A stretch of DNA of 64,000 bases from Escherichia coli (lineage in GTDB: Bacteria > Pseudomonadota > Gammaproteobacteria > Enterobacterales > Enterobacteriaceae), in assembly GCF_030013595.1 (NCBI RefSeq), contig NZ_CP122768.1; one strand, written 5' to 3'. The notes beneath the pieces were generated by a model. The model made no database searches. It saw nothing but the letters and a program-made list of their open reading frames with translations, and was not told where the DNA came from. Both the position numbers and the translations under genes were made by a program. The first letter of the stretch is position 1, and each line of letters starts with the position of its first letter. Below are positions 50,772 to 51,704 of this stretch, one piece after another.

Positions 50772-51129
50772 GATTCACCCCCTGAATAACCTGATAACCG
50801 CAACTGGTCAGCAATTCGATAAATTCCGGCAGTGTTCCGAAACAGCAATCATCTCGCAGCCGTTCTCGGGATACTTCAACGCCGTTTTCGTAGTGACTCA
50901 CCATGCGTCCGGTAAAATGCAGATCATCATCGTGATGGCTCGTTAACGGCTTAATCAGTCGCGCACGTTCTGCCAGCTCCAGCAATGCTTCAACGCTTCC
51001 GGCAATTGCACCATCCGGCAGGTGATAATTACTTGCCACGCGTCCATTCTCCACGTTAACCAGTAGCTGCCCGGTGAATTTCTCATCAAACTGAATGCTG
51101 TTAAGGTCAGAAATTGACAGGTTAATCAT
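50764..51129 (-). CDS. hypothetical protein carrying two tandem copies of the FTG(R/Q) module (121 aa)
   Basis: Internal duplication: FTGQLLVNVENGRV...AGSVEALLEL and FTGRMVSHYENGVEV...FGTLPEFIEL. It overlaps both neighbouring genes by 8 nt. Confidence 0.55.
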   Translation of the reverse strand: MINLSISDLNSIQFDEKFTGQLLVNVENGRVASNYHLPDGAIAGSVEALLELAERARLIKPLTSHHDDDLHFTGRMVSHYENGVEVSRERLRDDCCFGTLPEFIELLTSCGYQVIQGVNHG

Positions 51130-51325
51130 GGCGTACCTCCTGGCGAATACGGGCAGCGAATACCATCACGCAGCCATCAGGAGATTGCTGACGCGCTTCC
51201 TGTTCGCTGGTGGCCTCAATGGTAATCACGCGCGGTTGTGCCGTGCTCAGGGCGATAAAACGCCAGATGTATTTATTCAGGTTGTGCGAGTCCCGCCCTT
51301 GCGGGTGTGTGGTATGATTTCTCAT
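51122..51325 (-). CDS. Icd-like small protein (67 aa)
   Basis: This is the 3' third of the 286-aa ORF-track entry, starting at MRNHTTHPQGRDSH. The segment YIWRFIALS...IEATSEQEARQQSP.GCVMVFAARIRQE resembles proteins annotated as host cell division inhibitor Icd-like in satellite islands. That match is from memory only. Confidence 0.5.
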   Translation of the reverse strand: MRNHTTHPQGRDSHNLNKYIWRFIALSTAQPRVITIEATSEQEARQQSPDGCVMVFAARIRQEVRHD

Positions 51326-51422
51326 AGCTACCTCGATACTCTTTCTATCGTTGGTGGTTAGAAGCCCCGTTACTGCTCCAACAGTGCGGGGTTTCGTCGT
51401 TTCTGTGCCTTGCATTAACAAG

Positions 51423-51504
51423 GTGTAAGACACAATGTAAAATACAAGTGTCTTACACGTCAAGCCTTCAAAATAATTTTTTTTCGTGTATATTGTCTTA
51501 CACC
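51423..51504. promoter_or_regulatory. operator-like repeats in the divergent control region
   Basis: GTGTAAGACAC (51423-51433) and its exact inverted copy GTGTCTTACAC (51448-51458) are joined by a third copy, GTCTTACACC (51495-51504). They lie between the Icd-like operon and the plus-strand RHH-like gene. Confidence 0.6.
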
Positions 51505-51524
51505 AACAACATAAGGAGTTAGAC

Positions 51525-51704
51525 ATGGCAACAGGTCCAAAGAATGCAAAATCACAATCTGTAACTGCACGTATTGCCCATGAAATTATTGAAGGCATGG
51601 AAAACGTGAAAGAAGAAGGCGAAAGTACAGGGCAGTTTATAAGTGCAGCCATGCGCGGCGAGATCAAACGCCGCCAGCGCCGCAAGGCCAAAGAGCAGGA
51701 ATAG
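51525..51704 (+). CDS. small ribbon-helix-helix-like protein (59 aa), the only plus-strand gene of the island
   Basis: An AGGAG Shine-Dalgarno lies 6 nt before the ATG. SVTARIAHEIIEGMENVKEEGESTGQFISAAMRGEIKRRQRR has a beta-strand then two-helix pattern with a basic tail. The ORF track starts earlier, at 51486. Confidence 0.5.
   Translation: MATGPKNAKSQSVTARIAHEIIEGMENVKEEGESTGQFISAAMRGEIKRRQRRKAKEQE

Follow-up and report, generated by a model that had tools for sequence, protein, structure and literature searches.

The locus studied here raises the question of whether the 199 nt between the start codons of an Icd-like ORF and a divergent 59-aa ORF form a regulatory switch, and what would operate it. 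The window is the whole stretch of Escherichia coli DNA analysed, 64,000 nt in length. A sequence-only reading of it had proposed a maintenance switch in which the small protein represses a replication operon. The region is probably the regulatory switch of a Gram-negative PICI-type satellite of ~10 kb beside tRNA-Pro and yejM. The island occupies ~44.7-54.1 kb of the window beside tRNA-Pro, with a left boundary (~44.7 kb) based on homology alone, and its genes occur in the order int, alpA, RHH (ribbon-helix-helix), icd-like, DUF4222, RepA, ProQ/FinO, PerC, and DUF2213, which is the gene set and order of Gram-negative PICIs of the EcCICFT073 type; as in these, a full complement of phage structural or lysis genes is absent. 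EcCICFT073, the model Gram-negative PICI, has the same order, the same small genes, and the same switch module, and two of its small genes entered the annotation only by recent re-annotation. The module is also present in a helper-embedded PICI of O157:H7 and, among 5426 complete E. coli genomes, in at least 632 (at least 12%), some of which have 2-6 copies. The replication genes differ, with a RepA helicase here and a primase in EcCICFT073. On the far side of the island, no att repeat matching the tRNA end was found. Helper-phage induction and packaging have been published for EcCICFT073 only (PMC6092414), and our literature search on Icd-like proteins in satellites and on a repressor or operator of EcCICFT073 returned no functional description.

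The genes that flank the gap are as follows.

51122-51325, minus strand: Icd-like ORF, 67 aa, first gene of the leftward operon
48855-51129, minus strand: remaining leftward operon, with two phrog_340 paralogs, DUF4222, and RepA/AAA_25 helicase
50764-51129 and 50571-50771, minus strand: the phrog_340 paralogs
50267-50566, minus strand: DUF4222 gene
48855-50270, minus strand: RepA/AAA_25 helicase
51525-51704, plus strand: 59-aa YlcI/YnfO-family RHH protein, predicted repressor
51804-51839, plus strand: intrinsic terminator of the RHH transcript, stem GGCCACC/GGTGGCC, then TTTTCTTT
51987-52193, minus strand: AlpA-family gene (Pfam PF05930, E=4.5e-8)

The Icd-like ORF matches NCBIfam NF033153 with 70.4 bits (cut-off 25, E=9.2e-20) and has no Pfam match, and its stop codon and the ATG of the following gene overlap (ATGATTAA). 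A homologous first ORF preceded by a Shine-Dalgarno sequence occurs in nearly all related loci; in many Xenorhabdus loci it is shortened to 41-43 aa, suggesting that the Icd-like protein may be dispensable. The Icd protein of P1 is named after inhibition of host cell division. A tblastn search of 50,697 phage records (E<=1e-3) with the Icd-like protein returned one satellite-like record (vB_KppS-Ant) and no P1-type phage, indicating that the kinship to P1 Icd is remote. A toxic, abortive, or addiction role, which had been proposed for the protein, may be entertained as a suggestion taken from the family name alone. Searches of the operon products against Pfam, NCBIfam, and PHROGs revealed no family of the Ant/KilA type.

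The 59-aa protein matches the YlcI/YnfO family, NCBIfam NF041551, with 66.8 bits (cut-off 30, E=1.2e-18), and the match spans residues 9-50 and the entire 42-position profile. It has no Pfam match at E<=0.1, and a PDB sequence search gave no meaningful match. The AF2 model comprises an N-terminal beta-strand followed by two helices, and the predicted fold is ribbon-helix-helix; family and predicted fold thus bear out the RHH-like pattern noticed in the sequence-only reading. That this is the only plus-strand gene of the island also holds, since the PGAP annotation of a related island lists just the RHH gene on that strand and the other plus-strand ORFs here are shadows within minus-strand genes. 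The ORF is preceded by a Shine-Dalgarno sequence (AAGGAG, 51513-51518), and the terminator of its transcript folds with -19.5 kcal/mol (z -3.0). Beyond the RHH core, the protein has a basic tail only, with no extra toxin-binding domain, and the arginine-rich C-terminal segment GEIKRRQR(R/K)K is invariant.

The family includes K-12 YlcI and YnfO (DUF3950), uncharacterised prophage proteins for which our literature search found no described function. K-12 ylcI adjoins cos and nohD of prophage DLP12 and has no Icd-like neighbour, and its context shows no obvious three-site operator layout. In some satellites (L068-L071 and L075), the position of the RHH gene is taken by a longer subfamily that resembles YlcI, again with the three-site layout. 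A tblastn search of the phage collection with the 59-aa query gave no match; an ORF listing of the satellite-like record vB_KppS-Ant reveals an RHH homolog that is unannotated, 67 aa in length, and a member of the longer subfamily, and the module was found in no bona fide phage genome of the collection.

The gap contains three copies of an 11-bp site and two predicted promoters, both identified by a promoter scan.

51423-51433, unstranded: operator O1, GTGTAAGACAC, exact 11-mer
51448-51458, unstranded: operator O2, GTGTCTTACAC, exact reverse complement of O1, 14 nt away
51493-51503, unstranded: operator O3, tTGTCTTACAC, 10/11 match, with TGTCTTACAC at 51494-51503
51434-51463, minus strand: predicted leftward promoter P_L, -35 TTGACG at 51463-51458, -10 TACATT at 51439-51434
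51467-51494, plus strand: predicted rightward promoter P_R of the RHH gene, -35 TTCAAA, 16-nt spacer, -10 TATATT

O1 adjoins the -10 element of P_L and spans its predicted start site, O2 occupies the P_L spacer and abuts the P_L -35 element, and O3, the predicted autoregulatory site of the RHH gene, overlaps the P_R -10 element and start site. With at most one mismatch, the 11-mer has three matches in the window, all inside 81 bp, as compared with a mean of 0.69 matches per whole window in shuffles. The P_L -10 element is only moderate; its -35 TTGA precedes the RHH ATG by 65 nt in nearly all related loci (60/60 distinct intergenic sequences). The P_R -10 element matches TAnnnT in 59/60 loci, mostly as TATACT, and its -35 element is poor in the majority. 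The top-scoring plus-strand promoter of the window, TTAACA-17-TAAAAT (51415-51443), seems not to be conserved on an informal look at one related locus and was left outside the model.

We compared 70 related loci from many Enterobacterales genera and one Gilliamella, and they share a common layout, in which two back-to-back promoters are overlaid by three sites whose positions are fixed. O2 and O3 are spaced 45 bp apart in nearly all loci (range 44-47), while the O1-O2 spacing varies (22-25 or 35 bp), so that the geometry of any cooperative binding is uncertain. The conserved property is the presence of three copies of one GTG-N5-CAC 11-mer at fixed positions. Many related loci carry all three copies as direct repeats, and site orientation flips among loci within one class, which suits sites for a symmetric dimer and is at odds with a conserved hairpin. 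The coordinates and sequences of the repeats and of both ORFs, as first read from the sequence, are therefore right and the O1/O2 inversion is exact in the window, but inversion as such is not a conserved trait of the operators. On the same ground we discarded a cruciform or RNA hairpin formed by the inverted repeat as the conserved feature.

Comparison of the loci also reveals a conserved plus-strand RNA within what had been taken for a gap, a feature that the earlier reading had overlooked.

51325-51403 (about), plus strand: predicted cis-antisense RNA, ~78 nt, with stem-loop 1, conserved GUGGUUAGA linker, and terminator
51310-51318, plus strand: predicted RNA promoter, extended -10 TGgTATGAT, hexamer 51313-51318
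51361-51395, plus strand: terminator hairpin of the antisense RNA, with a U-rich tail onward to ~51403

By complementarity, the predicted RNA covers the start codon of icd together with its Shine-Dalgarno sequence and most of its 5' UTR. Its predicted structure and strand have strong comparative support. Specifically, RNAalifold yields a consensus structure in which 98.2% of cells are paired and 16 of 22 pairs show compensatory changes, a result equalled by 0/500 shuffles. The alignment contains 95 G.U cells and one A.C cell, an asymmetry indicating that the plus strand is the RNA strand. The window sequence folds with -35.2 kcal/mol on the plus strand (z -6.4) as compared with -21.9 kcal/mol on the opposite strand, and the plus-strand fold is the more stable in 31/31 loci; on this and the G.U:A.C count we rejected the hairpin as a minus-strand attenuator or leader of the icd mRNA. 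A covariance model finds one match per locus in 73/75 sources, the window match being 51327-51409; the corresponding stretch of EcCICFT073 is NC_004431 1380766-1380850, minus strand. A search of Rfam over the island returned tRNA-Pro and chance microRNA-like matches on the palindrome only, and C4 and isrK gave no match at E<=1 over the island or at E<=10 over 51250-51560. A promoter, an antisense-strand structure, and a 3' hairpin with a U-tract are all present as predicted elements of a cis-antisense RNA.

It is unlikely, in our judgement, that the plus-strand hairpin is a mere insulating terminator or a leader element of the icd mRNA and that no discrete regulatory antisense RNA exists. The asymmetry of G.U over A.C cells places the selected structure on the plus strand rather than on the mRNA strand, and conservation with compensatory changes extends to stem-loop 1 and the linker. 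A terminator, moreover, presupposes a transcript, and an invariant TAnnnT hexamer is the only promoter-like element upstream on the plus strand. This hexamer lies 14 nt before the start of the RNA model in 60/61 distinct sequences, an offset that stays fixed although the icd reading register shifts by 7 nt between classes. What speaks for the mere hairpin is the proposed promoter itself, whose -35 element is weak or absent, so that the window relies on the TGn extension of the -10 element, and whose -10 box sits inside coding sequence. A point against the model as a whole is that the U-tract after the hairpin of the window is weaker than in most relatives. We retain the antisense RNA as the preferred prediction; it would presumably act on the icd leader. 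More speculatively, the invariant tail GEIKRRQR(R/K)K of the RHH protein could bind the conserved hairpin of the RNA, in which case the protein would be a regulator that binds both DNA and RNA.

The loci fall into ~14 specificity classes, and within a locus all three sites shift together with residues 11-17 of the RHH protein, the alternating strand residues co-varying with the core of the three sites. In particular, QSVTARI pairs with GTGTCTTACAC, QMTTVRI with GTGAAATACAC, KKLEARV with GTGTCAGCCAC, QALKARV with GTGTGGCCCAC, QQLNARF with GTGAATCGCAC, and LQVSVRL with GTGAACACCAC. EcCICFT073 has operators of the GTGTGGCCCAC class. In Mantel tests, the strand residues correlate with the O2 core (r=0.42, p=1e-4) and with the O3 core (r=0.48), and the remainder of the RHH protein likewise correlates with the operator core (r=0.42), so that the assignment to residues 11-17 leans partly on the known contact mode of RHH proteins with DNA.

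The correlation with the remainder of the protein also favours a reading in which a single inherited block comprises the repeats and the 5' end of the gene, with a non-regulatory or structural role for the repeats, as do the homology, and hence non-independence, of the loci and the distance of only 25-100 bp between the sites and the co-varying codons. We nevertheless regard such hitch-hiking as highly unlikely. Between the sites and the codons lie the 26-nt spacer and the leader, neither of which correlates with the residues of the strand (r=-0.01 and -0.07), indicating that linkage alone is insufficient to account for the co-variation. Furthermore, the copies within a locus change in concert (O2/O3 identity 0.85 within a locus, as compared with 0.58 between classes), and the same class reappears in distant genera whose flanks otherwise differ.

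It is most improbable that the repeats are read by AlpA, the Icd-like protein, or the replication initiator (as iterons) and that the 59-aa protein does something else. We rejected AlpA as the reader since loci that differ in operator class have AlpA segments of 100% identity, even though AlpA is the sole regulator shown experimentally in such islands (PMC6092414). The Icd-like families phrog_6196 and phrog_1743 carry the PHROGs label 'transcriptional repressor', but Icd-like proteins are 90-95% identical across different classes, with 90-92% for the three classes of this window, EcCICFT073, and the O157 element, and on this ground we rejected a reading by the Icd-like protein in the manner of Cro or Arc. 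Repeats close to replication genes can be iterons; here, elements with a RepA helicase and elements with a primase share one layout, the repeats overlie promoter hexamers at constant positions, and they co-vary solely with the adjacent RHH strand residues.

Finally, it is barely credible that the RHH protein serves a toxic Icd-like protein as antitoxin or partner, or acts as a centromere binder of the ParG/omega type, instead of being a life-cycle repressor: the two genes are divergent and the protein is an RHH core with a basic tail, so that the co-transcription and toxin-binding extension of type II toxin-antitoxin systems are both absent, Icd-like proteins and RHH classes assort independently, the Icd-like ORF is truncated in many loci whose RHH gene and sites remain intact, and a Pfam, NCBIfam, and PHROGs scan of the island proteins found no ParA-type partner.

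Family membership, the predicted RHH fold, the overlap of sites and promoters, and a co-variation that excludes AlpA and the Icd-like protein thus uphold the core of the proposed repressor switch. We argue that the RHH protein reads the three sites, represses the leftward icd-replication operon, and regulates its own gene. In the model, predicted P_R would drive the RHH protein, while predicted P_L would drive the icd-like gene, the two small genes, DUF4222, and the RepA helicase. RHH dimers would read the 11-bp GTG-N5-CAC sites via residues 11-17 of the N-terminal beta-strand; this binding, which we infer, has strong comparative support. RHH proteins dimerise through a two-stranded antiparallel sheet that enters the major groove of repeated sites, and the co-variation of alternating strand residues with the core of the three sites lends such a mode indirect support here. 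Binding at O2 in the P_L spacer and at O1 over the start site would turn the replication operon off, and binding at O3 would exert negative autoregulation on P_R. The ~78-nt plus-strand RNA would start from the -10 box within the first icd codons, stop at its own terminator, and keep leaky leftward transcripts from being translated or cause them to decay, and the overlapping stop and start codons would carry the antisense effect onward to the next gene.

AlpA, the published inducer of such islands, was also overlooked in the sequence-only reading. The AlpA of EcCICFT073 is an activator that suffices for excision and replication and induces the island when supplied alone, and the existence of a repressor in this element has been called unclear (PMC6092414). 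Induction by AlpA alone implies that the RHH protein cannot be an insurmountable master repressor. The alpA gene lies upstream of, and co-oriented with, the predicted repressed operon and is convergent to the RHH gene, and a terminator scan from alpA to the icd ORF found no minus-strand terminator-like site, an arrangement that would allow read-through into the operon. The same scan identified a further hairpin.

51928-51955, plus strand: second plus-strand terminator-like hairpin, just past the alpA stop

This hairpin would protect alpA from antisense transcription. A helper phage would switch on AlpA, as published for EcCICFT073 (PMC6092414), and transcription from the alpA promoter would then run antisense through the repressor gene into the operon, thereby bypassing P_L and silencing the repressor. 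Induction by alpA read-through is the weakest step of the model; it would reconcile AlpA-only induction with an RHH repressor. A wider reading, which we put forward tentatively, is that Gram-negative PICIs have their missing maintenance repressor in the YlcI-like RHH/operator cassette, with interchangeable immunity classes, an antisense RNA, and AlpA-convergent read-through. Induction might then, though this is again doubtful, consist of repressor-gene silencing and promoter bypass, unlike the anti-repressor binding of SaPIs.

The arrangement resembles several known switches in part. The immunity I region of P22 comprises the RHH repressors Mnt and Arc, the sar antisense RNA, and ant. As in that region, an RHH repressor (here predicted) is divergent from the operon it would control, with operators over promoters. 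In contrast to the P22 region (described in PMC2629481), the protein here lacks sequence similarity to both Mnt and Arc, three 11-bp sites take the place of a single Mnt operator, an Icd-like gene stands first in place of arc, no ant gene is present, and the genes controlled would be the replication genes of a satellite, not of a phage. The resemblance to a second phage system concerns the operon leader. In the immunity I region of P1 and P7, icd is coupled to ant. Here, too, a small ORF of the Icd family is first in the operon and translationally coupled to the following gene, and a structured RNA (~77 nt) would target its translation start. The c4 RNA of P1/P7 is described as repressing Ant synthesis (PMC8546580). 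However, P1 c4 acts in trans after being processed out of the same transcript, whereas the RNA predicted here lies on the opposite strand and has no Rfam C4/isrK match, and P1 immI is not known to have an RHH protein. Copy control in pMV158/pLS1 combines the RHH repressor CopG with the countertranscript RNA II on repB. There, copG is co-transcribed with repB, whereas the RHH gene here is divergent; pMV158 is a plasmid and not an integrated satellite, and the proteins belong to different sequence families. The predicted switch also occupies a position equivalent to that of Stl/Rpr, the master repressors of Gram-positive PICIs (SaPIs), divergent from the excision/replication operon on the integrase side, and its presumed role is likewise island quiescence (PMC6092414). 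Stl is a large helix-turn-helix protein inactivated by binding of a helper-phage protein, whereas the candidate here is a 59-aa RHH protein and the published inducer is the activator AlpA instead of an anti-repressor.

Gram-negative PICIs are widespread carriers of virulence and defence genes. Their published regulation model contains the activator AlpA only, and the difference from Gram-positive islands has been called 'a mystery' (PMC6092414). No repressor has been reported so far for this island class, and the antisense RNA is previously undescribed and matches no Rfam family. If the model is true, it would provide a concrete switch for the field's own model element, EcCICFT073, and a first function for the DUF3950/YlcI family. 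It could also explain the coexistence of several satellites in one genome: co-resident elements share a class in 0/23 pairs, which is only suggestive. For synthetic biology, the ~14 classes would represent orthogonal pairs of small repressors and operators with a partly legible code.

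The sequence-only reading had placed inverted operator repeats between an Icd-like operon and a lone plus-strand gene with a ribbon-helix-helix (RHH) pattern, and the repeats are exactly as claimed: GTGTAAGACAC forms O1, its reverse complement forms O2, 14 nt away, and a third copy, matching at 10 of 11 positions, forms O3. There is no further copy of GTGTAAGACAC with at most one mismatch anywhere in the 64-kb window. The 59-aa ORF likewise stands as the sole convincing plus-strand gene, in agreement with how PGAP annotates a relative with 98% identity. The ~10-kb island spans ~44.7–54.1 kb of the window, beside tRNA-Pro and yejM.

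Features of the island and its proposed switch region
Last in the listed gene order, minus: DUF2213 protein gene
47562–47849, minus: PerC-family regulator gene (E=2e-32)
47846–48388, minus: ProQ/FinO-family gene, RNA chaperone (Pfam E=8e-24)
48855–50270, minus: RepA/AAA_25 helicase
Next after the paralogous ORFs, minus: DUF4222 gene
50764–51129 and 50571–50771, minus: two small paralogous ORFs after icd, both matching phrog_340
51122–51325, minus: Icd-like ORF, NF033153 match
51313–51318, plus: predicted −10 hexamer of the antisense RNA, TATGAT, preceded by TG at 51310–51311
~51325–51403, plus: predicted antisense RNA, ~78 nt
51423–51433: O1
51448–51458: O2
51463–51434, minus: predicted leftward promoter P_L, TTGACG-18-TACATT, consensus scan
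51467–51494, plus: predicted rightward promoter P_R, TTCAAA-16-TATATT, consensus scan
51493–51503: O3
51525–51704, plus: 59-aa RHH gene
51987–52193, minus: AlpA-family gene
52362–52604, minus: 80-aa ORF between int and alpA, 'hypothetical' in a related island's annotation
52721–53962, minus: integrase
54175–54248: tRNA-Pro, beside the island

In the consensus scan, P_L and P_R are arranged back to back, and the repeats overlap each of them. Specifically, O2 fills the P_L spacer, O1 begins one base past the P_L −10 and spans the predicted start site, and O3 overlaps the P_R −10 and start site. A homolog scan of one genome per species yielded 70 loci, from Escherichia, Citrobacter-like genera, Enterobacter, Serratia, Yersinia, Pectobacterium, Dickeya, Xenorhabdus, Proteus, Morganella, Providencia and Gilliamella. 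In nearly every locus the P_L −35 TTGA is 65 nt upstream of the RHH start codon, the P_R −10 conforms to TAnnnT in 59 of 60 distinct sequences, and the distances are 45 bp for O2–O3 and 22–25 or 35 bp for O1–O2. The two predicted promoters are conserved promoter-like elements. O1 is inverted in some operator classes and direct in others, with both orientations found within the QQLNARF class, which fits the near-palindromic site form GTG-N5-CAC.

The sites vary among loci while the three copies inside one locus agree, and the site core tracks RHH residues 11–17.

Residues 11–17 of the RHH protein and the corresponding site (a partial table; more classes exist beyond these nine rows)
QSVTARI / QSVTVRV: GTGTCTTACAC
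QMTTVRI: GTGAAATACAC
KKLEARV: GTGTCAGCCAC
QALKARV / QSLKSRV: GTGTGGCCCAC
QQLNARF: GTGAATCGCAC
QQIVSRV: GTGAATGCCAC
LQVSVRL: GTGAACACCAC
QKMSARV: CTGGCACCCAG
KRFDVRV: GTGTCGGACAC

Over 26 distinct combinations, strand-peptide distance correlates with core distance at O2 (r=0.42, p=1e-4) and at O3 (r=0.48), and the controls, spacer (r=−0.01) and leader DNA (r=−0.07), show no correlation. Spacer and leader lie between the sites and the codons, and this control argues against simple linkage. Residues 12 and 14 of the protein are the most variable, positions 13, 15 and 17 carry hydrophobic residues, and positions 10 and 16 do not vary. This is the alternation that known RHH–DNA complexes would lead one to expect of a strand with one face toward the DNA. 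Three predicted cognate sites on promoters, together with a putative RHH-fold protein whose strand co-varies with them, have strong comparative support.

Two other candidate readers of the repeats were rejected. The Icd-like protein is 90–92% identical among the window, the model Gram-negative PICI EcCICFT073 and an O157:H7 element, despite their differing site classes (GTGTAAGACAC, GTGTGGCCCAC and CTGGATTCCAG, respectively), and AlpA segments are 100% identical across different classes in two pairs of related loci (L004 vs L024; L003 vs L019). This near-identity indicates that what moves together is the operator set with the N-terminal portion of the RHH gene. Co-resident elements share a class in 0 of 23 pairs, with modest statistics (P=0.13 overall, 0.011 within Xenorhabdus).

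The 59-aa protein matches NCBIfam NF041551, 'YlcI/YnfO family' (66.8 bits, cut-off 30), for which the literature searched reports no function. Its basic C-terminal tail, GEIKRRQR(R/K)K (residues 45–54), varies little or not at all across the full set of specificity classes and resembles an arginine-rich motif; the DNA backbone, the conserved RNA or a protein may be its partner. The Icd-like ORF matches NF033153 (70.4 bits, cut-off 25), and its stop overlaps the ATG of the next gene, the 121-aa phrog_340 paralog, which seems to comprise two stretches. The families phrog_6196 and phrog_1743, matched by 51125–51325, carry the PHROGs label 'transcriptional repressor', which clashes with the NCBIfam name and with the absent Icd–operator co-variation.

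A hairpin conserved in every locus, which the sequence-only reading had overlooked, sits in the interval separating O1 from the icd start. Its plus-strand fold is the more stable one in 31 of 31 loci (mean advantage 8 kcal/mol); in the window, the 80-nt plus-strand segment reaches −35.2 kcal/mol (z −6.4) and its complement −21.9. The RNAalifold plus-strand consensus comprises a short stem-loop, a conserved GUGGUUAGA linker and a 14-bp terminator stem, with 98.2% of cells paired and compensatory changes in 16 of 22 pairs; none of 500 shuffles matches any measure, and slid controls drop to ~40% paired. The alignment holds 95 G.U cells versus one A.C cell, indicating selection on the plus-strand RNA, not on the icd mRNA. 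With a covariance model, 73 of 75 sources give a single copy per locus, in every case on the RHH strand; of the other two, one contig is cut off and one upstream region is disrupted.

A TAnnnT hexamer precedes the model start by 14 nt in 60 of 61 distinct sequences. Its spacing to the structure stays the same although its register against the icd ATG differs by 7 nt between two classes of Icd N-terminus, in which the hexamer encodes different amino acids; the constant spacing suggests a promoter −10, not a constraint on the coding sequence. Strong comparative support underlies the prediction of a structured RNA from the plus strand that has a −10 box and a terminator of its own. This RNA would be an exact complement of the icd start codon, the Shine-Dalgarno sequence and most of the 5′ UTR, and it has no match in Rfam, C4 and isrK included. 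The sequence-only reading had raised a possible Icd toxicity with an abortive or addiction-like role. Many Xenorhabdus loci keep the RNA, sites and RHH gene intact but have the Icd-like ORF shortened to 41–43 aa, suggesting that the leader and RNA matter more than the Icd-like protein. The co-occurrence of a FinO-type protein and a conserved hairpin-plus-tail antisense RNA in one element hints at a possible partnership.

Elsewhere in the island, adjacent minus-strand ORFs (45845–46498 and 46563–47156) match separate parts of phrog_6216 (545 positions), the former also matching DUF2213 and a head maturation protease family. Together they could represent one capsid-remodelling or protease-scaffold gene that is split or modular. 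The 80-aa ORF has no match in PHROGs, the sole library scanned for it. In 44000–44725 and 54050–54300, no directly repeated copy of the 3′ end of tRNA-Pro turned up on the far side of the island, and homology to related islands starts only at ~44725.

EcCICFT073 carries this module with an identical gene order, and PGAP annotates there a 'YlcI/YnfO family protein' (C_RS30120) and an 'Icd-like protein' (C_RS30125) between alpA and primase. It also occurs in a helper-embedded PICI within a terminase gene of an O157:H7 prophage and in a packaged element of 16.5 kb, deposited under the phage name vB_KppS-Ant (LR881103). In LR881103 the 67-aa RHH gene (L075 3586–3789, minus) is unannotated and a 324-aa hypothetical CDS (L075 3182–4156) covers the switch, while ETEC6335 (L001 8016–8588) carries a 190-aa 'Icd-like' CDS in its public annotation; both CDSs are spurious, spanning the operator/promoter region and antisense RNA. 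At least 632 of 5426 complete E. coli genomes contain at least 80% of 51122–51704. In the phage collection searched, the module was found only in the satellite-like vB_KppS-Ant record, so it appears satellite-specific. The K-12 namesake ylcI (L076 6252–6446, DLP12) is divergent from nohD, does not adjoin an Icd-like gene, and lies immediately beside what we take to be the cos site; the YlcI family thus has at least two distinct genomic contexts. A 2026 survey lists YlcI/YnfO and Icd merely as accessory genes (PMC13612085).

Functionally closest is the P22 immunity I region, which combines very small RHH repressors and divergent promoters with the sar antisense RNA (PMC2629481); P1 immI also shares features, a 77-nt RNA repressing Ant synthesis in P1 (PMC8546580). 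The module in the window has neither an ant gene nor a C4-type RNA, and its RHH protein lacks sequence similarity to Mnt and Arc of P22 or CopG of pMV158. CopG/RNA II copy control in pMV158 is a further parallel, and in P1 immI the first ORF, of Icd type, is coupled to the gene that follows. The module is a member of none of the three.

We infer that the RHH protein would repress P_L through O1 and O2 and autoregulate through O3, and that the antisense RNA would block translation or stability of leaky icd transcripts, an effect that would reach the next gene through the stop/start overlap. Two predicted plus-strand terminators would shield alpA from the RHH transcript, and a terminator scan found no minus-strand terminator-like site between alpA and icd. 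Two direct repeats, GTGGGTAC(C/T)GTTTT, 20 nt apart (52258–52293, minus), lie 65–100 nt upstream of the alpA ATG; as candidate AlpA or integrase-arm binding sites, they bear on the published AlpA autoactivation. AlpA is described as an activator induced by the helper phage that alone triggers excision and replication (PMC6092414). The same paper calls the existence of a repressor 'unclear', and the later literature searched restates this model and mentions neither an RHH repressor nor this RNA. Most tentatively, AlpA-activated transcription from the alpA promoter might read leftward through the RHH gene, with convergent interference, into the operon. Such read-through would make a repressor compatible with the published finding that AlpA is sufficient.
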